DNA of 32,000 bases. It comes from Candidatus Omnitrophota bacterium. GTDB taxonomy: Bacteria; Omnitrophota; Gorgyraeia; Zapsychrales; JANLHA01. Shown one piece after another: positions 701 through 32,000 of the stretch (its first letter is position 1; every line of letters begins with the position of its first letter). The stretch lies in the NCBI GenBank assembly GCA_963662715.1, contig OY759724.1:690001-722000 (forward strand), in the 5' to 3' direction. The position numbers and the translations under genes are program-made. A model generated the notes under the pieces. It was not told the DNA's origin, did no database searches, and saw only the letters and a program-made list of their open reading frames with translations.

Positions 701-766
701 AAAATGAATCGCAATCTGCATATGTTTATGACACGATAAACCTGTTAATATATCCCTGCCGAACGG

Positions 767-2338: not shown

Positions 2339-2469
2339 AGTTATTAATAAAACCTTTACCTTTTTAGCCCTGCCATAAAACTCATGCTTTGTGCGTCTGC
2401 AGAGCGTTGTTGAGAGGCCTTCCCGCCTCCGATGGGTTTTCCTGGCTCAGAGAGCCCCCCCAAAAATGT

Positions 2470-3807: not shown

Positions 3808-3925
3808 TACAACTTCCTTTCAGCATCCCCTCAATCTCACAAGGCCACAGCGGTAGACAGAATAACAGATTCATACACATAAAATAAAGGACCGGATAAT
3901 TCTTACGAGGCAGGAAGATTGAGCT

Positions 3926-4282: not shown

Positions 4283-4306
4283 TTATACCCCTTTTTCTTT
4301 TTTTAT

Positions 4307-4334
4307 ATTATAAAACATTATTACCTTTTGGCAA
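4307..4334 (-). promoter_or_regulatory. Candidate sigma70-type promoter for the MORN-repeat gene (TTGCCA-16 nt-TATAAT on the minus strand)
   Basis: The reverse complement reads TTGCCA (4329-4334), a 16-nt spacer, then TATAAT (4307-4312). This is about 25 nt upstream of the ATG at 4282. Sequence match only. Confidence 0.35.
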
Positions 4335-4459
4335 ATACCTTCACACAATCCTCACATTTTTTCAAAATTGCCACATTTTCCCCTAAAATAGGGCCCCCTC
4401 CCGCTCCCGGGGAACGGCCTTACTTAATCCCTGCCCTTTCAACACAATAGAAATGAAGT

Positions 4460-5260
4460 CTACTCTGAATTTCCCATAGGAGAAACAAGAGGATTCATTT
4501 CAGGGCAAAAGTCGGTTAAAGTTTGTTTTAATATCTCCACCTTTCGTTTTAATATCGCATCATTCTTTATCCACTTATGGACGATGCGGTTTTGATTCTC
4601 TACCATAAGAGACGCAAATATTTCGGCCCGGTCCTCGTCCGGACTTTTCATGGAATAATCAGTCACAAACCCCGGAATGGAAGGCGCGTAATAATTTAAC
4701 GGGTTAGCGGAGCGTTGACGGGGCCGGGGATATTCATATTGAAATCCCGGAACATTCATACTCCCCCACAGGTCTCCTGCCCAGGAAAAGCCTGCTTGGT
4801 TTTCAAGCATATGATACAATTCATGATGAATGTTATGCCGTTGTTTTATTTTATTTCCCCGGTTTCGCAGGAAATCAAGCATGATAAAATCATGACCTAT
4901 CTGATAAAGCCCTTCCGTAGGAGAATTTTCATAAAATTGCCTCTTAACTAAAAAAACACACTTTAAACGGATTTCTTTAAAAAAACAATCCGGATACCTC
5001 CCCAGTTCTTCTTTAAGAAGCAACAGAAAGGCATGGACGTCTTTGGCATCTTCCGGGCCGGGAGGAGCGACAACAATCTTCGTCTCCGGGACAGCCGGGA
5101 GTTCCGTCAAAATAACCCGGGCCCCGAAATCCTGCTGAATTCCGGCGATAAGCTGTTCAATATCGGAAAGGCTTTGCGCGGCGAGGAAGGATGAAGACAT
5201 AACAAGCAGGCTGAGAAAAAAACAGCAGAATACAGCAATCCTAAAATGTCTCTTTTTCAC
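4460..5260 (-). CDS. Exported protein with HExxH zinc-metallopeptidase-like motif
   Basis: 266 aa with a signal peptide (CCFFLSLLVMSSSFLAAQS) and a single HExxH (NIHHELYHML). A downstream acidic segment (SPDEDRAEIFASLM) could supply the third ligand. The GTG start overlaps the stop of the upstream gene (GTGA, 5257-5260). Family not recognised. Confidence 0.5.
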   Translation of the reverse strand: MKKRHFRIAVFCCFFLSLLVMSSSFLAAQSLSDIEQLIAGIQQDFGARVILTELPAVPETKIVVAPPGPEDAKDVHAFLLLLKEELGRYPDCFFKEIRLKCVFLVKRQFYENSPTEGLYQIGHDFIMLDFLRNRGNKIKQRHNIHHELYHMLENQAGFSWAGDLWGSMNVPGFQYEYPRPRQRSANPLNYYAPSIPGFVTDYSMKSPDEDRAEIFASLMVENQNRIVHKWIKNDAILKRKVEILKQTLTDFCPEMNPLVSPMGNSE

Positions 5261-5781
5261 TTTTTATCCGTGAGCAGTAATTCTTCCCGCAAATGAGGCC
5301 TTTTGAGCCGGAAAAGCAAATAAGCAAATACCGTGACAGGCACGATGGATATGAAACCCCATTCGAGAATCGAGAAAAAAGAATATACAAGCAATCCCGC
5401 GATGATAAAAGACGACAAGCGATAGGCCCAGATGCGTTTATTTTTCAAATAAACAGAACAGACGACCAGGCTGAAGGAAAGGAACGCAATAATGAAAACA
5501 GTAAAGCCGTCGGGTTCGACCAACAAAATATTATATCCGGGCTTTGTATTTAAATATTGCAGGACGGGGATCGAGAGGAAGAAAATGGACAAAATCACAT
5601 AATATCCTAATAACCCCACAATCTGAATTTCCTTGGCGACCAGGTCCAGTTCACTGAAATATTTTCCTTTGAACTGCTCCCGGCGTTTCATAACCAGGTG
5701 AAAAACCAAAAAAAACGGAATAATGTTGATCAGAAACATCCGGCACATTAATTCAATGTAGACCCAGTCTATGGAGGACAT
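5257..5781 (-). CDS. Hypothetical integral membrane protein (about 5 TM segments)
   Basis: 174-aa hydrophobic ORF. RBS TAGGAG lies 7 nt upstream of the ATG at 5781. It has a 4-nt overlap with the downstream HExxH gene. Confidence 0.6.
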   Translation of the reverse strand: MSSIDWVYIELMCRMFLINIIPFFLVFHLVMKRREQFKGKYFSELDLVAKEIQIVGLLGYYVILSIFFLSIPVLQYLNTKPGYNILLVEPDGFTVFIIAFLSFSLVVCSVYLKNKRIWAYRLSSFIIAGLLVYSFFSILEWGFISIVPVTVFAYLLFRLKRPHLREELLLTDKK

Positions 5782-6012
5782 TCGTTTGCTCCTACATTAA
5801 AATGATTTTTATACGGCCTGACTTTACCCTGAGTCAGGCGCCATCAGATAGTTTACACTAATCGTCCCGATAGTGATAACCATTTTCTTTGTTTGCAAAA
5901 ATATCCTTATAAACGCTTTTCTTAATTTTCACGCTCAGCCCCTGAAATAATATGAACAAATCATCCCTTCAGGTGATGCGAGACAATCAGCTTTCCAAAC
6001 ACATGACAAACA

Positions 6013-7566
6013 TTATAAATCTATCGTATACCCGTCATTATCATTAAGATAGGGGTAACCGTGACGGTAATTTTTATGATCCAGTTCGATCAGGATTCCT
6101 TTTAATTCCTGAGGGGCAGCGTTTTCCTGCAAAGCGACCCCACGCCCCTTGTATCGCCAGATGCGATATATTCTTTCTTTTAAAAAAGGCCCAGAATAGA
6201 TCGGTTTATTATACGGGTCAAAGCGGCATTCCTGCCCAAGGAATAAAAGTTTTATCCGGGAAGGATGATAAGGATAATAATGGTACTTCTTATATATATT
6301 ATTAGTTTCAATGAAAACAAAACAAAGATTCATTTGAATAAAAAACAGGCAGGCAAAAACAACAGCTTTATTCAACCGGGATAAGAATAATAAACGTGCC
6401 AAGAATATGGCAAAAAATACAGACCAATATGTTCCGTACCAATAAGGCCCCCAGATAACATTGGAAACAGTCATAAACAAATTATGAAACAATATCAGCA
6501 TTGACAATCCGAAAGCCCATAGGATAAGTTCGATATGGATCGTGCTGTCCCGGGGAATCCGTCTTTGCTGATAAAATGCGCGGACGACAAGGACCGACAG
6601 CGTTATGACACATAAACAGTTCACCGCCCCTAACAACTTAAACCATACCAGACTGTTGGGAGAGATTTTGACGATCCCCAGCGTATCAAAAATTAATAAT
6701 GCTGCGTTTCGGGACAAATTTTGAATAAACACGCTGAAGGTTCTTTCATGAAATAATCCTTCGATCTTGCCGTATCCTTGAATCGGATCAAAACAGCCGG
6801 CGGAGTTTGTCATCATCGGCAGAAACTTTGTATACAACAACAAAGCCAGCACTGGGATTAACAGGAACCCCGTGAGCCTCACCCTATCCGTCAGTAAATA
6901 CGGAAAAAATAACACAACAGCAGGGTAAATGAGAAGTGCTGTTTCGTCCCAGAAGAAACTTATGAGCATCAACATGAGGAACCCGGCGAAACGCCAAGAG
7001 GGGAACGAACGGCTTTTGTCACAATGGGGTGGTGATGATTTGCATAGCGTTGAGGCATAAAACAGGCACAGGATGATGGAAAAATTCGTCATGGCTTTCG
7101 CTGGACGAAAAAGCATGACAACAAGCGACAAGAAGCCGGGGGACAGCAAATAAAAAGCGACAGCAGCTAAAGCGGTATTGGCGTCTATTTTTATGTTTCG
7201 AAGAAACCGGAACATAAAAATGGGGGATAATATTAAAGAAAATATCCATGTCAAGGATAAGCTGGGGTGCGGAGCGACGGCTTGCCATAACCAAACACGA
7301 AACTTGGTATCGATAATTTCAAAATAGGAAGATAGCGGCCTGGATATCCGGGGTGCATATTCGAAAACATTCCAGTTTAAGCCAAGCTGAAAATCCTGCA
7401 GGCTGAGATCTTTTCCTTGGTCCAATATCTGGCTTTTTATCCAGAATTGCTCAGGATGCATCCAGACATGATCATAAGACAACAAAAGGAACGCAATAAA
7501 TACGTAGGCAAAAGAAAGCAAAAGCGCGGCAGGGTAATTTCGAATAAATTGAAGGAACGCTCGCAT
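6013..7566 (-). CDS. Polytopic membrane protein, GT-C-like (putative glycosyltransferase) with C-terminal soluble domain
   Basis: 517 aa with more than 10 predicted TM segments. The first loop (YDHVW...EYAPRISRPLSSYFEIIDTKF...) resembles the DD-loop/RPL segment of the 1-700 and 7821-9545 proteins. The family assignment is an inference from topology and this motif. Confidence 0.55.
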   Translation of the reverse strand: MRAFLQFIRNYPAALLLSFAYVFIAFLLLSYDHVWMHPEQFWIKSQILDQGKDLSLQDFQLGLNWNVFEYAPRISRPLSSYFEIIDTKFRVWLWQAVAPHPSLSLTWIFSLILSPIFMFRFLRNIKIDANTALAAVAFYLLSPGFLSLVVMLFRPAKAMTNFSIILCLFYASTLCKSSPPHCDKSRSFPSWRFAGFLMLMLISFFWDETALLIYPAVVLFFPYLLTDRVRLTGFLLIPVLALLLYTKFLPMMTNSAGCFDPIQGYGKIEGLFHERTFSVFIQNLSRNAALLIFDTLGIVKISPNSLVWFKLLGAVNCLCVITLSVLVVRAFYQQRRIPRDSTIHIELILWAFGLSMLILFHNLFMTVSNVIWGPYWYGTYWSVFFAIFLARLLFLSRLNKAVVFACLFFIQMNLCFVFIETNNIYKKYHYYPYHPSRIKLLFLGQECRFDPYNKPIYSGPFLKERIYRIWRYKGRGVALQENAAPQELKGILIELDHKNYRHGYPYLNDNDGYTIDL

Positions 7567-7820
7567 GTATGTTGGCTTAAATTTTATAAATTAAATTTTT
7601 TATTTAATAGTCTAGCAGTAAACGTCTGAAATGTCCGGGATAAAAAAGGCGCAAAAGAACGGGGCAAAAATGCCGGGCTCATCAAAAAAAGGCAAACATA
7701 TGGACAAAACTTCCTGATAAGAGTATCTTAAACATAAGAAAATTCAATCGCACTGTTCATGTTTCTCAAAGGAGTTTCCCGGGAAACGACCTCCATAAAC
7801 CTAAAGGGTTGTTTATAGTT

Positions 7821-9545
7821 ATGGCGACATTATCAAAACCCTTCGGAAACAGAAAAACATATTTTCTTTCTTTACTGATTATCATCACGGTTAATTTGAT
7901 TGTCTTCTCTCCCTCGTTTCATATCCGGGCCAAAGGCGACCATATCGCCTATCTCATCGAAACCGCCGACATAGAAGACCTGACAGAGTTAATTAATTAC
8001 AGTTATTCCTACTGCCGGACACGGGTTATTTATCCCGGAGACCGCATCTTATTCCGCCCGCTGTTTTATGTTCTTCTTTCCCTTGAGAAATGGCTTTGGG
8101 GTTACAATTTCATTTATTGGCAAATAACGGGCTTCTTCTTTCATATCATCATCCTGTCTTTACTCCTTAGAGCATTAAATACGCTTCAGAGCCACAACAT
8201 TTCATTTCTTTTTGTCCTGTTCTTTTCTGTCTTATACATCGGACACGATCTGGTGACATGGCACCACATGCACGGCTACTTAGTGTTCATAATTTTGCTT
8301 CTCTTCTCCTTTATTCATTTTATTCATTACGTTCAAAATGAGCAGAAAAATCACAAGAATTTATGGAGCATGATCGGATGCCTCTTGCCCGCTGTGTTTA
8401 TCAATGAGTTCGGCGCTGTCGCTGCCATAATATTCTGGGGCACTTTACTGATTCACCGCAAGTTTGTTCTGTCTCCCCGGAGGAAAGGGAATGACGCGGA
8501 CAAAAGATGCTTCCGGAAATTCAACAATTTGACTTTCCTCTTTCTGCCCGTGATAATCTATTTTTATTTAAGCCTGATCGACTTCAACCTGAGATTTTCA
8601 ACAGGCTGTCTTTCCCAGGGATCAAACTTTTTTGCTTCTCTGGCTTCTCCCGGAAAACTCCTTATGCATTTCGTCTCCCTTCTCCTGGCCAGCTTTAGCC
8701 TTCCGGTTATTCCTGCGGCGTTCATGATATTTGTCGATGAAAAAAATTATGCCCAATTCATGAACCTTTCCCTCATCATGCAATATGACCCGCACACAAA
8801 AACTTTCTTCATATTAAATATCCTTCTTCTGCTGACCGCCGTGACGACAGGGGGCATGCTTATTTACAACCTGAGCAAAGACAAAATCCGGCTGAGCCCT
8901 AAGCTACGCGAGGCCTGTCACAATAAACAAATTCAAGATCTTCTTATCATGACATCCCTATGCAGTTTAATGCTTACGGCTTATATTTTTGTCCTGGTAT
9001 TTTTCCGGACATCAGGAAAAACCCTCTCGTATGTTTCTAATAATCTATACCATTTTTATATTCTGACCATATTCCCGGCCATTATTAGCTACTGTATATT
9101 TTTTGTCATCCATAATATCTTTATTAAGCACCAAAAAATGCTGACAAGCCTGACTGTCGTTGTGCTAGTGCTCGGAATTTCTTTAAATGCTTCAAAAGTA
9201 TACATGTTAAATAACATTGCTCAAAAAAAATACGCTCCCTGGACTCAGTTTATCAGAGAATTAGGACAATTTGTCAATGAACATAAAGAAGAACCCGGGT
9301 TCTCTTTTTTCTTTGTAAGCCGAGACACCCCGAATTATTTCCGCGTAACGGCCGAAAACAACCTGGAAAAGAAAGAGATACTCGGGTACACTTCCGATTT
9401 TCTTTTCCGGAGATATATCAACACCCTTTCTCCGAAATATTATCTTATTTTCAGACAGCACGAAGGCATTGTCCCTTTCCAATCCCAAAAAGAGGCAGAA
9501 AAATACCTGCAGCAAGAACAGACAAACCGCTTAACAGCTGAATAA
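7821..9545 (+). CDS. Polytopic membrane protein, GT-C-like (putative glycosyltransferase) with C-terminal soluble domain
   Basis: The ORF track starts at TTG 7809. The ATG at 7821 (MATLSKPF...) is more plausible. There are more than 10 TM segments. The loop KGDHIAY...RVIYPGDRILFRPLFYVLLSLEKWLWGYNFIYWQITGFFFH parallels the TMTC/PMT_2 first-loop architecture. Confidence 0.55.
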   Translation: MATLSKPFGNRKTYFLSLLIIITVNLIVFSPSFHIRAKGDHIAYLIETADIEDLTELINYSYSYCRTRVIYPGDRILFRPLFYVLLSLEKWLWGYNFIYWQITGFFFHIIILSLLLRALNTLQSHNISFLFVLFFSVLYIGHDLVTWHHMHGYLVFIILLLFSFIHFIHYVQNEQKNHKNLWSMIGCLLPAVFINEFGAVAAIIFWGTLLIHRKFVLSPRRKGNDADKRCFRKFNNLTFLFLPVIIYFYLSLIDFNLRFSTGCLSQGSNFFASLASPGKLLMHFVSLLLASFSLPVIPAAFMIFVDEKNYAQFMNLSLIMQYDPHTKTFFILNILLLLTAVTTGGMLIYNLSKDKIRLSPKLREACHNKQIQDLLIMTSLCSLMLTAYIFVLVFFRTSGKTLSYVSNNLYHFYILTIFPAIISYCIFFVIHNIFIKHQKMLTSLTVVVLVLGISLNASKVYMLNNIAQKKYAPWTQFIRELGQFVNEHKEEPGFSFFFVSRDTPNYFRVTAENNLEKKEILGYTSDFLFRRYINTLSPKYYLIFRQHEGIVPFQSQKEAEKYLQQEQTNRLTAE

Positions 9546-15835: not shown

Positions 15836-18022
15836 CTATCGGTCCAGGGCCTGCATCGCCGTGGTAAACTCCGAAAAATCCGTTATCGGCTCCCGGCACG
15901 TCTCTTGTTGGCAGATATAAACGGCAGGACAAGCCTGTTTATGTTTTTTAGCGTAAAAAAAGGCTTTCAAAAATTCCTGTTTTTCCGTTTCCCCGGCACA
16001 AGGAGGCACCAGGGACACAACAGCATGAGGAGCAAAGGATTGATTCAGATGATCCAGCATGGCCTGCACCTCGGGGTTCTCTTGCCTCCCGATGAAAATA
16101 ATTTCCTGCCGCGGGCCCAACAATAAATCACAGGCAACAAGCAACTGCGGATAAGTCGCCGGCGCTTCCTGGATGACAGAGGAAAAAAACCGGCAGAGCT
16201 TTTCGGCCTTGGCATACCATTCGGTTTGACCGGTAAATTGAGAAAGCCGGATCAGGTCCCAAGCGGCTAACGCATTGCCGGAAGGAAGAGCTCCCGAGTA
16301 AATATATTTCTGCCTGTCGATGATTTGCGGATCGTCCTGACCTGTCAGGAAAAAACCTCCCTCGGAAGGATCCTCAAAGAGTTCGATCATGCTCTCTGTC
16401 AGCATGTGCGCCTTCTGCAGATATTCCACTTTAAATGTGGCCTGATAAAGTTCAATGAGACCATAAATAAAAAAAGCATAATCGTCTAACATGCCCAGTA
16501 CGGCCGCCTCTTGATCCCGGTACCGGTGAAAAAGCCGTCCGTCATCCCGGACGAGGTTTTTGAGCAGGAAATCAGCCGTCTGTTCGGCGCTTCGGGCATA
16601 TTGAGGTTTGTTAAGAACTCTCGCCCCTAACGAAAGCGCGGCCATCATAAGCCCGTTCCAATCGGCCAAGATCTTGTCGTCCCGGTGCGGACGGGGCCTC
16701 TGAGCCTGTGCCCCCCGGAGTCTCTTCCGTGCAAGACAAAGGCATTCTTCAATCTCCTCGGGCCTCTTTCGAAAATGACGGGCTGTCTGCAGCAAGTCCT
16801 GCTCTATCATCAGAATGTTCTTCTGTGGAAACGCGCCTTTAGGACCGCTGCGGATGTTCCCTGATGTTTTTATCCCGTAATAATAGGCAAAAATCTCTTT
16901 TTCTTCCTTGGAAAGGCAGGAATCTATCTCATGAACATCCCATAAATAATAGGCCCCTTCTTCTAACACATCCACAGGTGGAGAAGCAGAGGCGTCCCTG
17001 CGGGGCAAACTGTCGGCATCTTCCGCGGAATAAAACCCGCCCCCTTCATCATGTAAATTCCCCAATACATATTCTATGGTTTCTTCGGCCACCCGCTTAT
17101 AATCCATCTGCCCGGTGACCTGATAAGTTTCCAGATAAGCGACGGTCAACAGGGCCTGGTCGCACAGCATCTTTTCAAAATGCGGCAGCTGCCAGAATTG
17201 ATCCACGGAATACCGGTGAAACCCGCCCCGCAGATGATCCCGGATGCCTCCCCGGCTCAAAGCCTGGAGCGTCCTGTTAACCATGAATAAAGCTTCCTGG
17301 TTACGGGAGCGGCTCCAATACCTCAACAGAAAGGAAAGGCTGTGCGGCTGGGGGAATTTCGGCCGGATACCAAACCCCCCGTTTTTTCTGTCAAAATGAC
17401 TCTCCATGGACTGAAAAACTTTCTGAAGCAAAGAGGCTTCCACCGGGGAAGGCTCCGGGGAGGGCCGTGCCTCTTTCAGCAAGGCCATAATTTTATCGGC
17501 TGTCTGGTCGACCTTCCCTCTTTCCTTCTCCCACACCTCTTTTACGGATAACAGGACCTCTTTAAATCCGGGACGTCCGCCCTGCCGGTCCAAAGCGAAA
17601 TAGGTCCCCGCAAAAAAAGGACGGCCGTCAGGTGTCAGGAAAAGATTCATCGGCCACCCCCCGTTTCCGGCAAGAAGCATGACGGCCTGCATATAGTAAT
17701 TATCGATGTCCGGACGCTCCTCCCGATCAAGCTTGACAGGAATAAAATGCTGGTTAAGAATCCGGGCCACGTCCACGTCCTGAAAAGACTCCCTCGCCAT
17801 AACATGACACCAATGGCACGTTGAATAGCCGATCGATAAAAAAACCGGCCTGCTTTCCGCCTGAGCCTTACGGAAAGCTTCTTCTCCCCAAGGATACCAA
17901 TCAACCGGGGTCCCGGCGTGCTGTTGCAAATAAGGGCTTTTTTCTCCGCCCAGACGGTTGCGGCGGACATTCTCTTCCATAATGTTCCTCTTGCTCTGCG
18001 GGAGGGACAGGGAAGCCAACAA
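15836..18022 (-). CDS. Thioredoxin-domain protein of the DUF255/YyaL (SPATA20-like) family with six-hairpin glycosidase-like domain
   Basis: [59 protein letters not shown] is the canonical DUF255 N-terminus. The likely true start is the ATG at 17980 ([10 protein letters not shown]...). Confidence 0.85.
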
Positions 18023-22209: not shown

Positions 22210-24156
22210 TTATTCCTTATTTTCTTCTTTATTCTTCTCCTCTACAACTTGAGCCGTTATTTTCGACGGGGCCTGTTCATAATGGGAAAACTTCATGGAA
22301 TAGCTGCCCCGGCCCCCTGTCATCGAACGCAAATCTGTAGCATACTTGAACAATTCCGACAAAGGGATCTGCGCTATGATCGCTTCATTCTTGCCTTTGG
22401 CCTCCTGCCCCTGAATTCTTCCCCTCCGGGAGCTGATGTCCCCGGAAATCTGACCGATGAAGTCACTGGGGATGACGATCGTCACTTCCATAATCGGTTC
22501 AAGTAAAATAGGCCCGGCCTGTTTCACGGCCTCTTTCAAGGCCATAGCCCCGGCGATCTGAAAAGCCATATCGGAAGAATCAACGGCGTGGAAGGAACCG
22601 TCAACAAGATTAATCTGAATATTAATGATCGGAGATTTGGCGATAACGCCTTCGGTAATCGTCTGTTTAACGCCTTTTTCTACGGAAGGGATATAATTCT
22701 TGGGGATAGCCCCGCCGAAAATCTTATTAACAAATTCATATTCTTCGCCGTCCCGGGGGATAGGGGCTATTTCCAGATCCACGTCCCCGTATTGCCCCCG
22801 CCCGCCAGACTGTTTTTTATATTTGTAACGGTACCGGGCCGTCTTGGTAATGGTTTCCCGGTAGCGGACTTTCGGCGTCCCCAGTTCCACATCCAGATTA
22901 TACCGGCTTTTCATGCGGTCCAGAATGACCTTCAGGTGCAAATCCCCCATCCCGGAGATAATAAGCTCTTTTGTCTCGGTGTCTCGCTCGATCTGCAGAG
23001 TATGGTCCTCCTCACACATCCTATGCAAACTCGTTGATATCTTTTCCTCATCCGCCCGCGTTTTAGGCTTGATGGATGCCGACAAAGACGGCGCAGGGTA
23101 AGCGATGGGAGCAAAGGCATATTTTTCACCGGAAGCGGTGATGGTATCTGAAACATGGCTGTTTTTCAATTTCGGCAATGCGACAATATCCCCGCACTCC
23201 GCCTGGACAACTTTTGTCTGCTCCTTCCCCTGCAAAAGGCTGATGGTGCTGACATGTTCCTTGGTCTTGTTGGTGACGTTATAGCAGTCCGAATTGGCCT
23301 GCATTGTCCCGCTGACGATCCGAAACAGTGACAACTGTCCAAGATGCGGATCAAAAAGAGACTTAAAAACAAAGCCGGAGAAAGGCCCTTCTGATGAAAG
23401 AGAGACTTCTTTTTCCTCCTCGGAATCGGAAAGCAGACCTTTAAATGCGGGCCGTTCAACCGGGGAAGGGAGATAAGCGATAACAGCCTCCAGCAGAGCT
23501 TCAACGCCTTCATCATTTAAAGCGCTGCCGCAAATGACAGGGTAAATTTTCGCATCAACGACAGCCTGCCGCAAAACACCTTTAACATCATCCGGGGATA
23601 ACGTCCCTTCCTCTAAATATTTCTCTAAAAGTTTGTCATCTGATTCGGCAATAGCCTCAATAAATTCCGAAGACTCAAGATCAATCTTAACGGCCTTATT
23701 GGACAACTGCTCCTGGATAGAAGCGATGGCTTCATCCACTTTCGCTTCTTCTTTGTCAGTTTTGTTAACATAAATAAGACACGGCAATCCCATGGCCTTT
23801 AATCTGTCCCAGGCATCCTCTGTCCCGACTTCCACGCCGTTAACAGCATCGACCACCAGGATCGCGGCGTCCGTCGCCTGAATGGCGGACACGGTTTCAC
23901 CGACAAAGTCCATGTACCCGGGAGTATCAATCATCTGTATCTGATGATCTTTATAATTCACTCTCAGGAAACTTGAATTGATGGATATCTTGCGTTCCTG
24001 CTCGTCTTCATTATAATCACTTACGGAGGTGCCTTGCATGACATCCCCTTTTCGTGTCGTTGCCTTGCAAAAGAACAAGATGCTTTCGGCCAAAGTGGTT
24101 TTCCCGCTATGGGCATGCCCGACCAAGGTGATATTTCGTTTTAATTTTACATCCAT
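22210..24156 (-). CDS. Elongation factor G family GTPase, short stand-alone paralog (reduced G' insertion)
   Basis: G1 GHAHSGKTT, G3 DTPGYMDF, G4 NKTD. EF-G domain IV/V signatures are KKQSGGRGQYG, DGSFHAVDSS and LLEPIMEVTIV. It is 648 aa, compared with about 700 for canonical EF-G. The segment between NKTD and ICGSA is about 45 aa shorter. It is not embedded in an rpsL-rpsG-fusA-tuf context. Confidence 0.85.
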   Translation of the reverse strand: MDVKLKRNITLVGHAHSGKTTLAESILFFCKATTRKGDVMQGTSVSDYNEDEQERKISINSSFLRVNYKDHQIQMIDTPGYMDFVGETVSAIQATDAAILVVDAVNGVEVGTEDAWDRLKAMGLPCLIYVNKTDKEEAKVDEAIASIQEQLSNKAVKIDLESSEFIEAIAESDDKLLEKYLEEGTLSPDDVKGVLRQAVVDAKIYPVICGSALNDEGVEALLEAVIAYLPSPVERPAFKGLLSDSEEEKEVSLSSEGPFSGFVFKSLFDPHLGQLSLFRIVSGTMQANSDCYNVTNKTKEHVSTISLLQGKEQTKVVQAECGDIVALPKLKNSHVSDTITASGEKYAFAPIAYPAPSLSASIKPKTRADEEKISTSLHRMCEEDHTLQIERDTETKELIISGMGDLHLKVILDRMKSRYNLDVELGTPKVRYRETITKTARYRYKYKKQSGGRGQYGDVDLEIAPIPRDGEEYEFVNKIFGGAIPKNYIPSVEKGVKQTITEGVIAKSPIINIQINLVDGSFHAVDSSDMAFQIAGAMALKEAVKQAGPILLEPIMEVTIVIPSDFIGQISGDISSRRGRIQGQEAKGKNEAIIAQIPLSELFKYATDLRSMTGGRGSYSMKFSHYEQAPSKITAQVVEEKNKEENKE

Positions 24157-25278: not shown

Positions 25279-26685
25279 TTACAATAATTCCTGCTGTGGG
25301 CCGGCTGAATCTTGCTGCGGACGCGCCATAAAAATCAGGGCCAAGACGGCCAAAGGGAAAAAATGCAGAATCAGGCGGGAAAGCGTCGTATCTCTCTGCT
25401 CAATCCAGATATAAGCGTTTGTGCAAAGAAACAGAAGAAACAGAATAACAAAAAACAAGGTCATGCAAAGGCAAAACCATTTGAAAAAAGGATGAATTTT
25501 TGAGCGGAACGAAAAAAACGAGCTGAAAACAAGCAAACTCCATATGACGTTCCAATTCCCGCTCCAGAATAATTCCTGAATAAGCTTGCTGAAAATAAAC
25601 GGAATCCGGGCCAAATTCTGCCGACCGAGTTCATAAACAACCCCGACAGACATGCCTTGTCTCATAAATTTAAACAACGGGAAGAGCAGAGATATCCCCA
25701 AACACGGGAAAATAAAGTTTAAAGCCGTTTTCATGCGACGGCCGGACAAAGATTTGTCCGAAAACAGCAGGCCAACGAATAAAGCTCCGTAAACCAAAAG
25801 ATAGGCCATGCCCTCCCGTTTTGTAAATGTGGATATCCCGGCGAATACCCCGGCGAGGACCAAAAACCGGGTCTCTTTCTCCGCATACCACAAGAAAATC
25901 ATCATAAGGGTGACACAGTTATAAACCATCAGAGTAAAATCCATATATCCTAATGAAGCATGCAGGGCAAAAAGATTGGATGTAAACAACAAGCCGACAC
26001 TCCACAAAGCCCGTCTGCTGTTTAAAAAGTAATTCACAAATTCATAGTGAATCACAATATAAGAGAGAAGATAAAAAGGGATAAAAACTTTAACAATCTG
26101 GTCACTCCAATAACCTAAATTCAAAACCATCCATGTCTGCAAGAGAGAGACATGCAGAGGATACCCCCGGTACAGAATATCCTGCGGTAAAACAATATTT
26201 TTGTTAAAGAAAAAAACTTTGGCATTAAGAGTGTTAATTTTCAAGGGGTCAAATCCATAAACGGGAATATGAAAGGCGCGCCAGAAAATATAAACACACT
26301 GAAAAACCACAAAAAGGATAATAATGATGTCTAAGAATTCCCAATAAATCTCATAAGGAGATGGTCGGGATAACTCTTTCCGCACCAAATCCTCATTAAC
26401 AGCACCTTGCTGTCCCTGCCCAGACCGTTTCTTAGAAACACTCCTTATGATTCCTATAAAAATCAAGCCAAGCAAGAAAAGATGAAGCCCCTGCCCGGCA
26501 AACGAACCTCCCAGCATATTCCAGGATAACATTACAATCGTCAAAATCCCGGTGCCCAGAATAAACGAGAGGGATATCTTAGCGGGGACCGTCAGCTCCT
26601 CCCTGGGAAAAAGAAAAGACAAAGAAACAGACCCTATAAGCCAGGGGATAAAAAGAGCAATACCTATCGCAAAGCCCGGGATCAT
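25279..26685 (-). CDS. GT-C fold membrane glycosyltransferase, ArnT/PMT_2 (GT39-like)
   Basis: 468 aa with more than 10 TM segments. A periplasmic loop after TM1-3 carries HIPVYGFDPLKINTLNAKVFF...YRGYPLHVSLLQTW. A TFTKREG loop is typical of this family. The ATGA start/stop overlap with the upstream gene is at 26682-26685. Confidence 0.65.
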   Translation of the reverse strand: MIPGFAIGIALFIPWLIGSVSLSFLFPREELTVPAKISLSFILGTGILTIVMLSWNMLGGSFAGQGLHLFLLGLIFIGIIRSVSKKRSGQGQQGAVNEDLVRKELSRPSPYEIYWEFLDIIIILFVVFQCVYIFWRAFHIPVYGFDPLKINTLNAKVFFFNKNIVLPQDILYRGYPLHVSLLQTWMVLNLGYWSDQIVKVFIPFYLLSYIVIHYEFVNYFLNSRRALWSVGLLFTSNLFALHASLGYMDFTLMVYNCVTLMMIFLWYAEKETRFLVLAGVFAGISTFTKREGMAYLLVYGALFVGLLFSDKSLSGRRMKTALNFIFPCLGISLLFPLFKFMRQGMSVGVVYELGRQNLARIPFIFSKLIQELFWSGNWNVIWSLLVFSSFFSFRSKIHPFFKWFCLCMTLFFVILFLLFLCTNAYIWIEQRDTTLSRLILHFFPLAVLALIFMARPQQDSAGPQQELL

Positions 26686-27425
26686 CGCCGCCCTCCCTGT
26701 CTTACAGCCATGAGACTCTTGTGATCATAAGGAGAAAACCAGTGAAATCCGGGAGGCAGAGCCTTAAAAGGCTCATCTTTCATAAACATAATGAGAACGT
26801 CAGGGTCACTGATATCGGGTTTTAAAATATCGATAGGGTAAAGGAAATACGCAAGTTCTGTTTTCCAGAACAACCCCAGGCCCTTCTCAAGATACAAATC
26901 ACTTAAAAGACGTGCCCGGGCATACCCTGATATGTGTTGATGACAGTAGCGGGAAAATCCATAGGTTTGTTTATAAATTTGGGCATATTTATTCTGAACA
27001 TCTTCGCCTTTGAAATGCTGATATTCAAAGGCGAATTGTCTAAGCTGAAATTTCACCTGGAAAAATGTTAATATAAAAAGCATAATCCAGGCCCCTGTCT
27101 TGAGTGTCTTTAATCCCTTTCGGAGAAAAAAGCGGGGGGAATTGTCTGCATGACGCCTGTTTCTGTAAGCCAGCCAGAGGGAAGAAAAAAAGATCAAAGC
27201 ATACCCATACCACAAAATATTCAACGGGCCAATCTGACGATAGAGACAACGGTTGGGCGTCATGGCATAAAAAGTATCAATGAAGGAAACCATGGGAGAA
27301 GACGTATGCCAGGTAAAAGGAAAAAAAACAACAAACAAAACAAACAACACAATTCCGACTCCCAGCTTGATTGTGCGGGGTAACGTTTTCTGATCTTCTT
27401 CTTTATTATGGAAAGCAGCTGCCAT
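26682..27425 (-). CDS. Hypothetical membrane protein (3-4 TM segments plus soluble C-terminal domain), co-translated with the GT-C gene
   Basis: 247-aa ORF. It has a 4-nt overlap with the downstream glycosyltransferase-like gene. No recognised motif. Confidence 0.55.
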   Translation of the reverse strand: MAAAFHNKEEDQKTLPRTIKLGVGIVLFVLFVVFFPFTWHTSSPMVSFIDTFYAMTPNRCLYRQIGPLNILWYGYALIFFSSLWLAYRNRRHADNSPRFFLRKGLKTLKTGAWIMLFILTFFQVKFQLRQFAFEYQHFKGEDVQNKYAQIYKQTYGFSRYCHQHISGYARARLLSDLYLEKGLGLFWKTELAYFLYPIDILKPDISDPDVLIMFMKDEPFKALPPGFHWFSPYDHKSLMAVRQGGRR

Positions 27426-27740
27426 TGATACGGCCTTTAAAATTTAAAAATTTTCGAGATCATTATCAACCACCCATATCTTTTAGGCTAATTCACCTTA
27501 AAGGAAAAAACCTTAAAGTAAAATAAACAACTTCTATGATATTCATTTTAAAACGTTCTTACCAGTAAAATTAATACTATTTAGGAAGCCGCTTGAGAAA
27601 TACATTCTTAAAGTGTTTAGGGCATCGGGGCCTAATTAATTTTTAAAGGAACTTCCAAGTATTTCACCTCTTAATATATTTATATGATATGTTTAACATA
27701 TTGTTGATGTTAAAAATAATAGACACACATCCATGCATAC

Positions 27741-27763
27741 CTGTCCAGGACTGTCCTAGACTG
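27741..27763 (+). promoter_or_regulatory. Direct repeats CTGTCCaGGA/CTGTCCTaGA/CTG; candidate enhancer-binding-protein site (UAS)
   Basis: Two and a third 10-bp direct repeats in helical phase. The first contains the palindrome GTCC-A-GGAC. They are centred about 95 nt upstream of the sigma54 -24 element. Confidence 0.3.
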
Positions 27764-27845
27764 AGCAAAAGAGGCAAGAACAGAAAAACACGAATTATGA
27801 ACAAATATTTCACAAAACAATAAATTTACTCCATTAATTAATATT

Positions 27846-27860
27846 TGGTACATTTCTTGC
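27846..27860 (+). promoter_or_regulatory. Sigma54 (RpoN) -24/-12 promoter element TGGTAC-N5-TTGC
   Basis: TGGTACATTTCTTGC has the GG and GC separated by exactly 10 nt, as in the consensus TGGCACG-N4-TTGC. It is 64 nt upstream of the ATG at 27924, inside a 500-bp AT-rich gap. Confidence 0.5.
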
Positions 27861-27923
27861 TTGTAATTAATACGTTAACTTCGCATCACAGCAAAAATAT
27901 ATATCAATTTAGGAGGTTTTTCA

Positions 27924-28712
27924 ATGAAACAGTCACTTAGAAACATCAGCATCATCTTTTTAGCGGTTATAGGAGTTGTGGCTCTGACCAGCAGCCCGGC
28001 TTCAGCACAAGCTGCCGCAACAATTCCAGTTGACCTGGAATTGAGTTTGGTTATTGACATTTCCGGAAGTGTCAGCGCTTCTGAATATGCAACACAAATC
28101 CAGGGTTATGGAAATGCTTTTAAAAGCGCTGCTGTTATCAATGCCCTTGATAACGGACAATACGAACAAATCGCCGTTAATGTCGTATTCTACAGCGGTA
28201 GCGCCGCGGAAGTTGTGGAATGGACTCTCGTTGACCAATCCAACTCCTCTGCTTTTGGGGACACGCTTATTGCTTTAGCCGACCCAAACAATCTGGGCAG
28301 CTTGACCGGTGTGGCCAATGCCATTGATACAGCCGACAATCTGTTTTTCACCAATATCTACGAAGGTGACAGACTTGTTATGGATGTTTCCGGTGACGGA
28401 ATTGAAAACGTAGACAGCGTAGCAGACGTTTTAAGTGCACGCGATATCGCCCTGGCCTTGGGAATTGATGCCATCAACGGTCTTGTTATTGATGATGAAA
28501 CCGGTGTCGTGGATTTTTATGCTGACAACGTCGTTGGAGGAGACGGGGCTTTCTTACTCGTTGTTGATTCTTTTGATGATTTGCAGCCGGCTATCATTGA
28601 AAAACTCGCCAGAGAAATCGGCGATGATCCTGTTGTCCCTGAACCAGCCACTCTTTCCCTGTTAGGCTTTGGCTTAATGGGATTAGCTGGTTTCAGAAAA
28701 AAGAGAAGCTAA
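27924..28712 (+). CDS. DUF1194-type von Willebrand factor A domain protein with PEP-CTERM sorting signal
   Basis: RBS AGGAGG lies 7 nt upstream. Signal peptide: IIFLAVIGVVALTSSPASA/QA. MIDAS-like motif: LVIDISGSVS. DUF1194 hallmarks: VMDVSGDG...ARDIALALGIDAINGLVI...FYADNVVGGDGAFLLVV. The C-terminal VPEPATLSLLGFGLMGLAGFRKKRS is PEP, a TM segment and a basic tail. Confidence 0.85.
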   Translation: MKQSLRNISIIFLAVIGVVALTSSPASAQAAATIPVDLELSLVIDISGSVSASEYATQIQGYGNAFKSAAVINALDNGQYEQIAVNVVFYSGSAAEVVEWTLVDQSNSSAFGDTLIALADPNNLGSLTGVANAIDTADNLFFTNIYEGDRLVMDVSGDGIENVDSVADVLSARDIALALGIDAINGLVIDDETGVVDFYADNVVGGDGAFLLVVDSFDDLQPAIIEKLAREIGDDPVVPEPATLSLLGFGLMGLAGFRKKRS

Positions 28713-28737
28713 TATAATTATATATATTTATGAAACT

Positions 28738-28763
28738 CCACGGCCTCACGGCCGTGGTTTCTT
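28738..28763 (+). terminator. Intrinsic terminator after the PEP-CTERM gene
   Basis: CCACGGCC-TCAC-GGCCGTGG, followed by TTTCTT. It lies 25 nt downstream of the stop. Confidence 0.6.
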
Positions 28764-29028
28764 AACTATTTTGACTGTGCAAACGCAGCTAAAATTCTAT
28801 CTGCGTTTGTCCTCGGTCTTCCCGGCCTTGATATTCGATGTATCGCTTTATCGATTCTTCGTCGGCTCCAACCGTTGACACAAAATACCCTGCTGACCAT
28901 ATCCTGAGTTATCCCGCCATAAATACAATAAACAGCATATCGCACAAACCCATGGGAACAAAATATCGCAGGGAAAGCATTCACAGCAAGGCAGGATGAC
29001 GACAAGGCATGATTCACTGCACGGGATT

Positions 29029-32000
29029 TTATTCTGACACACAATCATAACACTGAATAGCAGATTGGCCATCCTGTCCCGAATAGGTAAACAAAATAAT
29101 ACTTGTTTTTAGACACTGCTCTGTTTCCTCACAAGAAGAACAGTCAACATACAAGCCCTCTCCCACACAACGCTTATCTCCTTTTTCAAACCTGCATTCG
29201 AAGCAAGCTTCTCCGCTGGACAATGTCTTGGCAAAAGTGCAGTTAGGACAATTTTTGCACTCTTTCTCCGTTAAATAACCTATCGAACTGCAGGTTTCCT
29301 TCTTTTTCTGACATATATAACATTGTTCTCCTTGTTTAGTCCTTTTTGTCCCTTCACATTCCTTTTTCGAATCGGATTTGCAGGCAAGACATTCTTGCTC
29401 CGTTAACAGACCGAGATCCGAACAAAGCTGTGGTTTCTCCTCGCAGCTGTAACACTGCCGGCCTTCTTTGGTCTTCTGATCTTTCTTACACTGATTCTTA
29501 GGATCCTCTTCACACAGAGAACATTCCTCTTCAGAAATTAAACCAAGATCGATACATTCTTCCGGTTTATCCATACAGCCGTAACATTGTTTCCCTTCCC
29601 TGGTCCTCTGATCTTCGACACATTCCTTCTTCGGGTCTTTGGTGCAAATCGCGCACTCTTCTTCAGCCAGCAATCCAAGGTCGACGCATGCTTCCGGCTT
29701 GTCCATACAGCTGTAGCATTGCCGGCCTTCTTTAGTTTTCTGATCCTCGACACATTCTTTCTTCGGGTCTTTGGTGCAAATCGCGCACTCTTCTTCAGCC
29801 AGCAATCCAAGGTCGACGCATTCTTCCGGTTTGTCCATACAGCTGTAGCATTGCCGGCCTTCTTTAGTCCTCTGGTCTTCGACACATTCCTTCTTCGGAT
29901 CTTCGACACATACCGCGCATTCCTCCTGTGACAGCAGACCTAAATCTTCGCACTCTTCCGGCTTATCCATACAGCTGTAGCATTGCCGGCCTTCTTTAGT
30001 CTTCTGGTCTTCGACACATTCCTTCTTCGGATCTTCGACACATACCGCGCATTCCTCCTGTGACAGCAGACCTAAATCTTCGCATTCTTCCGGCTTGTCC
30101 ACACAACCGTAACATTGTTTCCCTTCCCTGGTCTTTTGATCCTCGACACATTCCTTCTTCGGGTCTTCGGCACATACCGCGCATTCCTCCTGTGACAGCA
30201 GACCTAAGTCTTCGCATTCTTCCGGCTTGTCCATACAGCTGTAGCATTGCCGGCCTTCTTTAGTCTTCTGGTCTTCGACACATTCCTTCTTCGGATCTTC
30301 GACACATACCGCGCATTCCTCCTGTGACAGCAGACCTAAATCGACGCATTCTTCCGGCTTGTCCACACAACCGTAACATTGTTTCCCTTCCCTGGTCTTT
30401 TGATCCTCGACACATTCCTTCTTCGGGTCTTTGGTGCAAATCGCGCACTCTTCTTCAGCCAGCAATCCAAGGTCGACGCATTCTTCCGGCTTGTCCATAC
30501 AGCTGTAGCATTGCCGGCCTTCTTTAGTCCTCTGGTCTTCGACACATTCCTTCTTCGGATCTTCGACACATACCGCGCATTCCTCCTGTGACAGCAGGCC
30601 TAAATCTTCGCATTCTTCCGGCTTGTCCACACAACCGTAACATTGTTTCCCTTCCCTGGTCTTTTGATCCTCGACACATTCCTTCTTCGGGTCTTCGGCA
30701 CATACCGCGCATTCCTCCTGCGACAGCAGGCCTAAATCTTCGCACTCTTCCGGCTTATCCATACAGCTGTAGCATTGCCGGCCTTCTTTAGTCTTCTGGT
30801 CTTCGACACATTCCTTCTTCGGATCTTCGACACATACCGCGCATTCCTCCTGTGACAGCAGACCTAAATCTTCGCATTCTTCCGGCTTGTCCACACAACC
30901 GTAACATTGTTTCCCTTCCCTGGTCTTTTGATCCTCGACACATTCCTTCTTCGGGTCTTCGGCACATACCGCGCATTCCTCCTGTGACAGCAGACCTAAA
31001 TCTTCGCATTCTTCCGGCTTGTCCATACAGCTGTAGCATTGCCGGCCTTCTTTAGTCCTCTGGTCTTCGACACATTCCTTCTTCGGATCTTCGACACATA
31101 CCGCGCATTCCTCCTGTGACAGCAGACCTAAATCGACGCATTCTTCCGGCTTGTCCACACAACCGTAACATTGTTTCCCTTCCCTGGTCTTTTGATCCTC
31201 GACACATTCCTTCTTCGGGTCTTTGGTGCAAATCGCGCACTCTTCTTCAGCCAGCAATCCAAGGTCGACGCATTCTTCCGGTTTGTCCATACAGCTGTAG
31301 CATTGCCGGCCTTCTTTAGTCCTCTGGTCTTCGACACATTCCTTCTTCGGGTCTTTGGTGCAAATCGCGCACTCTTCTTCAGCCAGCAATCCAAGGTCGA
31401 CGCATTCTTCCGGTTTGTCCATACAGCTGTAGCATTGCCGGCCTTCTTTAGTCCTCTGGTCTTCGACACATTCCTTCTTCGGATCTTCGACACATACCGC
31501 GCATTCCTCCTGTGACAGCAGACCTAAATCTTCGCATTCTTCCGGCTTGTCCACACAACCGTAACATTGTTTCCCTTCCCTGGTCTTTTGATCCTCGACA
31601 CATTCCTTCTTCGGGTCTTCGGCACATACCGCGCATTCCTCCTGCGACAGCAGGCCTAAATCTTCGCACTCTTCCGGCTTATCCATACAGCTGTAGCATT
31701 GCCGGCCTTCTTTAGTTTTCTGATCCTCGACACATTCCTTCTTCGGATCTTCGACACATACCGCGCATTCCTCCTGCGACAGCAGACCTAAATCTTCGCA
31801 TTCTTCCGGTTTATCCATACAGCTGTAGCATTGCCGGCCTTCCCTGGTCTTCTGATCTTCGACACATTCCTTCCTCGGGTCTTCGACACATACCGCGCAT
31901 TCCTCCTGTGACAGCAGACCTAAGTCTTCGCATGCTTCCGGCTTGTCCATACAGCTGTAGCATTGCCGGCCTTCTTTGGTCTTCTGATCTTCGACACATT
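29029..32000 (-). CDS. Acidic cysteine-rich tandem-repeat protein (44-aa six-Cys modules); 5' end lies beyond the right edge
   Basis: The reading frame is open from the window edge to the stop at 29029-29031. It holds 18 near-identical modules (MDKPEECEDLGLLSQEECAVCVEDPKKECVEDQKTKEGRQCYSC), 2 diverged modules and a 93-aa Cys-rich tail (...IQCYDCVSE). The track start at 31950 is only the first in-window Met. Repeat sequence continues to base 32000. Confidence 0.85.
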   Translation of the reverse strand, partial: CVEDQKTKEGRQCYSCMDKPEACEDLGLLSQEECAVCVEDPRKECVEDQKTREGRQCYSCMDKPEECEDLGLLSQEECAVCVEDPKKECVEDQKTKEGRQCYSCMDKPEECEDLGLLSQEECAVCAEDPKKECVEDQKTREGKQCYGCVDKPEECEDLGLLSQEECAVCVEDPKKECVEDQRTKEGRQCYSCMDKPEECVDLGLLAEEECAICTKDPKKECVEDQRTKEGRQCYSCMDKPEECVDLGLLAEEECAICTKDPKKECVEDQKTREGKQCYGCVDKPEECVDLGLLSQEECAVCVEDPKKECVEDQRTKEGRQCYSCMDKPEECEDLGLLSQEECAVCAEDPKKECVEDQKTREGKQCYGCVDKPEECEDLGLLSQEECAVCVEDPKKECVEDQKTKEGRQCYSCMDKPEECEDLGLLSQEECAVCAEDPKKECVEDQKTREGKQCYGCVDKPEECEDLGLLSQEECAVCVEDPKKECVEDQRTKEGRQCYSCMDKPEECVDLGLLAEEECAICTKDPKKECVEDQKTREGKQCYGCVDKPEECVDLGLLSQEECAVCVEDPKKECVEDQKTKEGRQCYSCMDKPEECEDLGLLSQEECAVCAEDPKKECVEDQKTREGKQCYGCVDKPEECEDLGLLSQEECAVCVEDPKKECVEDQKTKEGRQCYSCMDKPEECEDLGLLSQEECAVCVEDPKKECVEDQRTKEGRQCYSCMDKPEECVDLGLLAEEECAICTKDPKKECVEDQKTKEGRQCYSCMDKPEACVDLGLLAEEECAICTKDPKKECVEDQRTREGKQCYGCMDKPEECIDLGLISEEECSLCEEDPKNQCKKDQKTKEGRQCYSCEEKPQLCSDLGLLTEQECLACKSDSKKECEGTKRTKQGEQCYICQKKKETCSSIGYLTEKECKNCPNCTFAKTLSSGEACFECRFEKGDKRCVGEGLYVDCSSCEETEQCLKTSIILFTYSGQDGQSAIQCYDCVSE
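29311..32000 (-). repeat. Coding tandem repeat, 132-bp unit, at least 20 copies, with a 792-bp (6-unit) higher-order period
   Basis: The Met codons of successive modules fall at 31950 minus 132n, down to 29574. Copies 792 bp apart are nearly identical: 30241-30300 and 31033-31092 differ at 1 of 60 nt. Confidence 0.95.

Follow-up and report, generated by a model that had tools for sequence, protein, structure and literature searches.

Tandem 44-residue six-cysteine modules encoded by a Candidatus Omnitrophota bacterium and shared with exported proteins of its phylum

The window, a stretch of 32,000 nucleotides from a Candidatus Omnitrophota bacterium (assembly GCA_963662715.1, contig OY759724.1, positions 690,001 to 722,000), ends in the 3' part of a minus-strand gene, here called the repeat gene, which encodes tandem 44-residue modules with six cysteines each. 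Since nearly all the proteins found with this module are exported proteins of Omnitrophota, for the most part lipoproteins, the product is most likely a cysteine-cross-linked rod of the envelope or surface and not a cytoplasmic zinc array; in its full form, as an exported, disulfide-stabilised and highly charged envelope rod built of these modules, this reading is considered moderately probable. It is founded on the anatomy of the repeat, selection on the module, a subfamily restricted to Omnitrophota, export signals in the homologues and a fold predicted with high confidence and without a known match; the shape of a rod, the state and pairing of the cysteines, the biological role and the export of the protein encoded in the window (the window protein) are proposed from these observations.

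The repeat array and its modules

The frame is uninterrupted from 31998 to 29032, with the stop codon at 29029-29031, as had been read in a preliminary description made from the letters of the DNA alone; the remaining five frames hold 16-39 stops over 29029-32000. Its translation comprises 989 amino acids (aa), 135 of them cysteines, without histidine or tryptophan, and the DNA repeats with a period of 132 nucleotides (nt). Tandem Repeats Finder reported 18.5 copies (period 132, score 3177), and a degenerate DNA pattern for T-[KR]-E-G-x-x-C-[YF]-x-C-x-x-K-P matched the window 20 times, against 0.00 matches expected from shuffles. When the protein was cut every 44 residues, six cysteines stood at fixed spacing in every module; the unit alignment gave a consensus with 13 Asp/Glu against 6 Lys/Arg, and the last 93 aa held 12 cysteines, all in agreement with that description.

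The earlier count of 18 near-identical and two diverged modules also held and was refined, the 18 close copies forming three subtypes (A, B and C) arranged as a mosaic. Identity at the DNA level is 95-100% inside a subtype and 72-90% across subtypes. Differences between modules are distributed over the three codon positions as 671/421/1697, i.e., enriched at third positions, and the ratio of nonsynonymous to synonymous substitution rates (dN/dS) across the subtype consensus sequences is 0.07-0.10 (Nei-Gojobori), which indicates that purifying selection acts on the module as a protein, while the DNA of the array undergoes reshuffling and homogenisation.

The longest exact repeat inside the array measures 269 nt. 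A short-read contig of 4.2 kb from Logan is identical to window positions 25403-29644 and ends exactly at the start of the array, so that the copy number rests on the parent contig of 3.36 Mb, and the exact number depends on the assembly of that contig. Arrays of this kind systematically break short-read assemblies (at 29029-32000 of the window, in L001, in the closest relatives L007/L013 and L014/L022, and at many other loci): the repeat genes stop at contig edges, and their N- and C-terminal halves are found on separate contigs of one metagenome-assembled genome (MAG). The genes are therefore truncated in MAGs and under-represented in protein databases. These breaks, the split genes of the closest relatives and the identical 132-nt units with their long exact repeats could be taken as signs of a mis-assembled array or of a decaying, non-functional pseudogene, but such an explanation deserves hardly any credence. 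Intact open reading frames (ORFs) of 792-2271 aa with the same architecture occur in independent MAGs, which shows that the array is not an artefact, and the length of the parent contig points the same way; the dN/dS values and the 989 open codons, against 16-39 stops in the other frames, speak against a pseudogene.

The natural phase of the module, C-x10-CxxC-x7-C-x11-CxxC-x6 with its beginning at 'C.DLGLL', was set by the first modules of full-length relatives, in which the arrays open with 'C.D[LI]G[LI][LI]'; the gap between the two CxxC pairs, 17 residues in the phase used before, is 19 residues within the natural module. The 20 complete canonical modules of the window score 68-95 bits against the hidden Markov model (HMM) of the family and are thus members of it. 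The 93-aa C-terminal segment, formerly regarded as a unique tail, consists of a shortened penultimate module and a cap module, both of which are conserved in relatives (Table 1). In the shortened module the C15-C23 loop is reduced to 'PN', and a shortened unit occupies the same place in L013, L022, L032, P0013 and P0018. The cap module aligns with P0006, P0009, P0019, P0008, P0013 and P0018, and practically every complete relative ends in such a conserved cap unit (…(L/V)ILF(Y/F)…C(Y)xC…). The Omnitrophota 44-aa family, as defined here, comprises tandem modules closed by the conserved shortened unit and the cap unit.

Regarding conservation, 449 module matches were reduced to 387 distinct full-length modules, 381 of which retain all six cysteines. 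Further conserved positions are D3, L4, G5, L6, L7, D18, P19, T29 (85%), G32 (91%), Y/F36 (98%), K41 and P42. Among these modules there is only one genuine pattern of cysteine loss, in which C12 and C23 disappear together; it affects one module each in P0012, P0014 and P0015 and possibly goes back to a single event in one clade.

Relatives, export signals and searches for known families

When 1.84 billion representative proteins were scanned exhaustively in HMMER with a profile of two modules, 33 matched at E<=1e-3; P0020 was discarded as a false positive from an out-of-frame low-complexity translation. Across a set with a single genome for each GTDB species, the degenerate DNA pattern hit 22 stretches, of which 21 belong to Candidatus Omnitrophota MAGs (a few of these labelled 'uncultured Planctomycetales', which are mislabelled MAGs of the Planctomycetes-Verrucomicrobia-Chlamydiae (PVC) superphylum), and most stretches contained several pattern matches spaced at multiples of 132 nt. 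A match in Ca. Contendobacter (L024) arose by chance and has no module ORF. In 241 million metagenome records the same pattern hit 31 stretches, with module ORFs in 27; L034, L038, L052 and L057 were chance matches lacking such an ORF. As the pattern targets the 'TKEG..CY.C..KP' subfamily, restriction to the phylum applies to that subfamily only. An exact 47-nt probe from the tail matched no GTDB species genome. Word-indexed protein searches with the whole fragment, the C-terminal 197 aa and a 35-module alignment returned nothing, which reflects a limit of the word index and not an absence of relatives, since the exhaustive HMMER scan found them; the truncated or missing database entries probably explain these empty results.

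Full-length relatives consist of a signal peptide, 14-46 modules and the same C-terminal cap. Lipoproteins and secreted proteins of Omnitrophota from JAJDCB010000023.1 (L016), DAOWGP010000069.1 (L008), JAHFFY010000012.1 (L012) and JAKQKX01 (L014 and L022) share with the window protein the six-cysteine 44-aa module, the tandem architecture and the penultimate and cap units; their module number varies (14-46), and they are much less acidic. For the relatives checked there was no Pfam match and no study in the literature searched. The closest clade has the tail …CPNCTF…RFEKGDKRC…TSII(L/M)F…QCYDC(V/I)SE in common with the window protein; this distinctive tail is carried by the C-terminal fragments L013, L022 and L032, whereas L007, L014, P0017, L031 and L053 are N-terminal fragments. 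L007 and L013 come from one MAG, L014 and L022 from another.

Copies of the module (C.DLGLL...C..C..DP...C...G..C[YF].C) also follow the signal peptide of giant exported S8 subtilases of 1,300-2,400 aa (P0007, P0012, P0014, P0021-P0023, P0028, P0030, P0035-P0037). In these the modules are mixed with other cysteine-repeat types, e.g. CPGSCSSDQECV..G.CY.C, a cap unit is missing, and a conserved '…ITY(V/I)IIIIETPH.R.VL…' segment and a C-terminal Peptidase_S8 domain are present. A locus of the subtilase type (L026, 18-4013) lies on a metagenome contig of the Joint Genome Institute (JGI).

Every relative with an intact N terminus carries a lipoprotein or Sec signal peptide. Lipoboxes (VSGC, LAGC, FSGC, FLGC, ASGC, LIGC, VVGC and others) lie at about residues 19-24 of L008, L009, L011, L012, L015, L016, L017, L020, L021, L023 and P0013 and are also present in metagenome relatives. 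Most relatives are lipoproteins, with a low-complexity linker of roughly 40-110 residues between the lipobox and the first module, whereas the closest clade (L007, L014, P0017, L031, L053) has a Sec signal with a basic n-region, a hydrophobic core and AxA cleaved before FDLKQFWQEIQKKRE (n-h-AxA, with cleavage before FDL). The N terminus of the window protein lies outside the window and is expected, by homology, to have a signal like that of the closest clade, with AxA before FDLKQFWQEIQKKRE, followed by a first module beginning 'CSEIGLITEEEC'. Its C terminus (...QCYDCVSE, then the stop) has no PEP-CTERM motif, transmembrane helix or sorting tag, as had been stated before.

The preliminary description had left a secreted protein and a cytoplasmic array as competing readings; the former is favoured by the signal peptides of all relatives with N termini, and the latter conflicts with them. 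A cytoplasmic cysteine-rich redox buffer or metallothionein-like store could appeal to the cysteine share of 13.7% and to the unseen N terminus of the window copy, but is very unlikely because the relatives carry export signals; the fusion of related modules to S8 subtilases with signal peptides and the ordered α/β fold of the module, unlike metallothionein, count against it as well. Metallothioneins are small proteins with about 30% cysteine in C-x-C, CC and CxxC clusters and no regular secondary structure. As a candidate family they were rejected, the window protein having 13.7% cysteine, no CC or CxC motifs and an ordered helix and hairpin.

The window protein was searched against Pfam and NCBIfam at E<=10, and five full-length relatives against Pfam at E<=1. 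The only Pfam match of the window protein was Polo_box_3, which was rejected as spurious (31 bits, under the cutoff, with no significant stretch); the five relatives gave nothing relevant, the non-protease part of the related subtilases had no Pfam match, and NCBIfam returned 0 families. The Pfam models of EGF-like, LDL-receptor class A (LDLa), TNFR, furin-like and PSI domains did not match the window protein, and the zf-RING models were silent on it. The Myxococcus cysteine-rich repeat (TIGR02232) had no match in NCBIfam and DnaJ_CXXCXGXG none in Pfam; the module consensus has neither the Gly/Asn-rich motif of the one nor the motif of the other. The statement that the module belongs to no named repeat family, and in particular is not of the Myxococcus, EGF or DnaJ type, was thereby supported, as structure comparisons with Foldseek also gave no real match. 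With the AlphaFold2 (AF2) model described below, the best E-values were 2.6 in the PDB (template-modelling (TM) score <=0.14) and 2.4 in BFVD, and the TM-score was at most 0.19 over both searches. Small beads in a flexible rod are hard for Foldseek, and the result therefore suggests a new fold and does not prove one.

The family is not described in the literature searched on cysteine-rich proteins, lipoproteins and giant genes of Omnitrophota: the words 'cysteine', 'disulfide' and 'surface protein' do not occur in a survey of the phylum (PMC10066038), and a preprint on giant genes (10.1101/2023.11.21.568195) does not mention cysteine. The earlier suspicion of an undescribed architecture stands as far as the curated libraries and this literature are concerned, but the architecture recurs in roughly 50 public Omnitrophota contigs. 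The description that fits the module best is a new domain family belonging to a known kind, that of cysteine-rich tandem-repeat exported proteins.

With 26.7% Asp+Glu, a net charge of -12.4 per 100 aa and an isoelectric point (pI) of 4.39, the window protein exceeds the other array proteins compared in acidity; only P0018, where long acidic linkers surround the modules, comes close. The pI of the relatives ranges from 4.2 to 7.8, and in some of them Lys+Arg roughly equals Asp+Glu. High charge density is the trait of the family, and the strong net negative charge is a peculiarity of the lineage; the characterisation as very acidic applies to the window protein and not to its family. The high share and net excess of acidic residues in this protein and the fair conservation of D3, D/N18 and D/E40 in the module would suit an acidic matrix protein that binds cations or minerals (e.g. 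by binding Ca2+ or nucleating iron minerals), in which the cysteine scaffold would present carboxylates. Some Omnitrophota are magnetotactic. Because acidity is not conserved (relatives reach pI 7.5-7.8), cation or mineral binding is not a property of the family; the proposal is weakened for the family and not for this protein. No magnetosome or biomineralisation genes were found among the neighbours, and the family is spread over many Omnitrophota MAGs, so that a mineral-binding role is regarded as improbable.

Predicted fold and state of the cysteines

A single-sequence AF2 prediction of four modules reached a mean predicted local distance difference test (pLDDT) of 54. With an alignment of 36 rows from the window and the family (A5) as input, the last 219 residues were modelled at a mean pLDDT of 89.5 (96-98 over three canonical modules, lower in the loops of the cap) and a predicted TM-score (pTM) of 0.56. 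As assigned by DSSP in this model, C1 opens a one-turn helix, a β-bridge lies at L7, helix 9-15 holds C12 and C15, and a strand (21-28) with C23 is joined by the five-residue turn T-x-E-G-x to a second strand (34-40) with C35 and C38. C23 and C35 lie on one face of the hairpin and C38 on the opposite one; the turn T29-G32 (T-K-E-G) is free of cysteine. The shortened penultimate module is likewise a helix and a hairpin, and the strands of the cap module were found at model residues 189-197 and 210-217.

The preliminary description had compared the two CxxC pairs with the Cys4 knuckles of a zinc ribbon or rubredoxin. In those proteins two CxxC (typically CPxCG) knuckles in tight β-hairpin turns bind one metal. 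The model places one CxxC in a helix and the other in a strand with residues i and i+3 opposed, so that C35 and C38, on opposite faces of a regular hairpin, cannot chelate one ion; as helix 9-15 and strand 34-40 hold the two pairs and the consensus has no Pro/Gly signature, the comparison with zinc-ribbon or rubredoxin knuckles was abandoned. C12 and C15 share one side of the helix, within reach of C23 and C35 according to the model. Three disulfides inside each module, C12-C23, C15-C35 and C1-C38 (1-6, 2-4, 3-5), would fit this geometry, and they are favoured because the proteins are exported, the number of invariant cysteines is even, no CxxC forms a knuckle and C12 is lost together with C23. 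That the cysteines are oxidised to disulfides at all is judged fairly probable.

In the PDB, a sequence search returned the MDM2 RING only (7ahy/2vje), aligned with module positions 12-38; the E-value was 4e-4 for the profile of the window and 3e-3 for that of the family. A RING finger has eight cross-brace ligands, including His, and two Zn sites. The RING finger (C3HC4 or the MDM2-type C2H2C4) was rejected for the module, in which only the spacing of site 1 fits; the window protein contains 0% His and Foldseek found no RING. The similarity is probably convergent, since the predicted secondary structure differs and His ligands are lacking. In comparison with RING, zinc-ribbon and rubredoxin Cys4 sites as a group, the module has two CxxC pairs flanking a Gly-containing β-hairpin and a spacing identical to that of MDM2 site 1; it differs in that His, a second site and, in the model, a knuckle conformation are lacking, Foldseek gave no match and the family is exported.

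Next to a homologue at L010 (71-3023), a class III ribonucleotide reductase (RNR)-like gene was recognised three genes downstream and a radical-SAM activase-like gene two genes downstream, both read from translations; they are consistent with an anaerobic lifestyle.

Several points weigh against the disulfide-stabilised rod. The pTM of only 0.56 makes a rod-like arrangement of the modules tentative, and export of the window protein, the N terminus of which lies beyond base 32000, is deduced from homologues. The pairing proposed above depends on secondary-structure geometry and on a co-loss in one clade. Omnitrophota are largely anaerobes, so that extracytoplasmic cysteines might be metal-bound or reduced, and, at borderline significance, the MDM2 RING has the same CxxC-x7-C-x11-CxxC spacing in its Zn site 1.

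The last two points lead to the alternative of an exported poly-metal-thiolate array in a reducing periplasm, in which four cysteines per module would bind Zn, Fe or another thiophilic metal, the two leftover cysteines would form a disulfide or a bridging site, and the role would be metal buffering, sequestration or electron relay. Both CxxC pairs and the hairpin align with the MDM2 site-1 ligands C438/C441...C461/C464, the lineage is mostly anaerobic (as indicated by the class III RNR-like gene near the L010 homologue), and six invariant cysteines suit ligands as well as disulfides. The array is nonetheless thought unlikely: neither CxxC is a knuckle in the AF2 model, Foldseek gave no match to RING, zinc ribbon or rubredoxin, His and a CPxCG-type Pro/Gly signature are lacking, C12 is lost with the lone C23 instead of a second CxxC ligand, the first pair tolerates variation to CxxxC, and six cysteines per module are not divisible into Cys4 sites. 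More speculative, and doubtful to a higher degree than mineral binding, is the notion of extracytoplasmic metal-thiolate centres (Fe, Zn, Ni or similar; Cys4 and a spare cysteine pair) strung along a surface rod tens of nm long of ultra-small anaerobic epibionts, which might act as a non-haem, protein-based metal chain exchanging electrons with a host or mineral, or might sequester thiophilic metals at high capacity.

Among known systems, EGF-like and LDLa domains resemble the exported disulfide-stabilised array in being modules of about 40 aa with six cysteines that form rods in tandem exported arrays with an acidic surface. Their disulfides pair 1-3, 2-4, 5-6 in EGF and 1-3, 2-5, 4-6 in LDLa. 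The Omnitrophota module differs in the absence of a Pfam match, in its cysteine spacing, in its predicted helix and hairpin and in the proposed 1-6, 2-4, 3-5 pairing, and Notch EGF arrays appeared in Foldseek only at E about 5-8 with a TM-score of 0.14. Giardia variant-specific surface proteins (VSPs) and ciliate immobilisation antigens are CXXC-rich surface coats with about 12-14% cysteine, the arrays of which recombine fast. Repeated CxxC, periodic modules and a similar share of cysteine make these coats a functional analogue only: they are eukaryotic, have a transmembrane or glycosylphosphatidylinositol (GPI) anchor and show no similarity in sequence or profile to the window protein, for which no antigenic switching is indicated. 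Within the PVC superphylum, the chlamydial lipoprotein OmcA and OmcB and planctomycete cysteine-rich wall proteins are exported and have been proposed to give the envelope a disulfide-based rigidity. They share with the present family the superphylum, export or lipid modification and the wealth of cysteine, but no sequence relationship was found and they are not 44-aa tandem repeats; since all six cysteines appear to be satisfied within the module, cross-linking between molecules is not suggested here.

Genomic neighbourhood and meaning for the Omnitrophota envelope

Features of the repeat gene, of its 3' flank and of the corresponding loci in relatives are summarised in Table 1.

Table 1. Coordinates of the repeat gene, its parts and associated features (window positions unless a locus is named).
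Feature	Position	Strand	Remarks
3' part of open-ended six-cysteine repeat gene	29029..32000	-	989 codons and stop; N terminus beyond base 32000
C-terminal half of edge-cut module (aa 1-22)	31933..31998	-	CVEDQKTKEGRQCYSCMDKPEA; natural module positions 23-44
18 near-identical 44-aa modules (aa 23-814)	29557..31932	-	HMM 88-95 bits each
Two diverged canonical modules (aa 815-902)	29293..29556	-	78 and 68 bits against module HMM; all six Cys
Shortened penultimate module (aa 903-943)	29170..29292	-	CSSIGYLTEKECKNCPNC...CFEC; C15-C23 loop of 2 residues instead of 7
C-terminal cap module (aa 944-989)	29032..29169	-	C-x8-CxxC-x5-C-x20-CxxC-VSE; long hairpin with hydrophobic ...IILF... strand
G+C-rich palindromic hairpin, possible shared terminator	28738..28757	.	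between convergent repeat and DUF1194/PEP-CTERM genes
NHL gene / repeat gene in L025	6488-8566 / 8563-9011		
NHL gene / repeat gene in L007	892-3036 / 3033-4289		
NHL gene / repeat gene in L014	2-1465 / 1462-2517		
NHL gene / distant 2271-aa homologue in L016	2-625 / 604-7416		NHL gene directly upstream

In the closest relatives an exported protein with a double NHL β-propeller (about 690-715 aa) is encoded directly upstream of the repeat gene. In three genomes the two genes share 4 nt, the stop of the NHL gene lying over the start of the repeat gene, an arrangement that suggests an operon with translational coupling. The corresponding upstream region of the window genome lies past base 32000.

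On the other side, the product of a gene convergent with the repeat gene (27924-28712, plus strand) is a DUF1194 (vWA-like) protein that bears a signal peptide and a PEP-CTERM sorting tag, so that an exosortase system is implied for the genome; L013 and L022 have a weaker homologue of it at the corresponding position. The hairpin between the two genes possibly marks the 3' limit of the repeat transcription unit. A 92-aa ORF over the stop codon of the repeat gene (28766-29044) had no matches and was dismissed as spurious. The gene order of L022 (JAKQKX010000062.1, Candidatus Omnitrophota bacterium USDV_maxbin.135_sub) matches that of the window, the 3' end of a homologous repeat gene being followed by a PEP-CTERM gene in convergent orientation, by homologues of the 247-aa and 468-aa window proteins (identity 50-52%), by CheD (80%) and by EF-G (82%). 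This collinearity places the window in an Omnitrophota genome.

Polytopic membrane proteins without a Pfam or NCBIfam match are encoded at 25279-26685 and 26682-27425 (both minus strand, overlapping by 4 nt and conserved beside the repeat gene in L022), 6013-7566 (minus strand) and 7809-9545 (plus strand); in size and hydrophobic pattern they recall GT-C-type glycosyltransferases, to which they may be tentatively compared. The EF-G-family GTPase (22210-24156, minus strand, 648 aa), the gene with 82% identity to its L022 orthologue, matched its model in two stretches (protein 164-646 against model positions about 211-690), and part of the G' insertion therefore seems to be missing. Further minus-strand genes related to the envelope or to redox processes encode a secretin (767-2338; Secretin_N and Secretin), an intramembrane protease of the CPBP/Rce1-like type that is fused to TPR repeats (2470-3807) and a 728-aa DUF255 thioredoxin-domain (Thioredox_DsbH) protein (15836-18022). 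The neighbouring window proteins are singletons in a collection of 15 billion proteins.

For the exported, disulfide-stabilised rod the following picture may be drawn. The gene product would be an envelope protein made wholly of tandem 44-residue modules, each predicted to fold into a one-turn helix, a β-bridge, a two-turn helix with the first CxxC and a β-hairpin with Cys23 and the second CxxC. Three disulfides would lock this core-less, highly charged module into a rigid bead, and at least 20 beads in series with the cap would give a long, protease-resistant and strongly anionic rod of tens of nm, which would be lipid-anchored as in most relatives or secreted as in the closest clade. The array would grow, shrink and be homogenised by unequal recombination between the 132-nt units, while selection keeps the module. 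On ultra-small and often host-attached cells the rod may form a surface coat, act as a spacer or serve as a contact fibre, with a possible functional link to the presumably co-transcribed NHL propeller.

Omnitrophota are widespread and ultra-small, with no pure-culture isolates, and many are thought to be attached to or to prey on other cells; to our knowledge, almost nothing is known of their envelope proteins. The module is a repeat domain, restricted to the phylum in the subfamily scanned for, with a high-confidence predicted fold and no Pfam or NCBIfam model or match in the PDB or BFVD; whole lipoproteins, up to about 2,300 residues long, are built of it, and it also decorates giant exported subtilases. 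Its six cysteines in a compact unit make it a scaffold of possible interest for protein engineering. If the arrays are surface rods, they would be candidates for a layer of cell contact or coat in these bacteria and would offer a handle for antibodies, proteomics and cryo-electron tomography.

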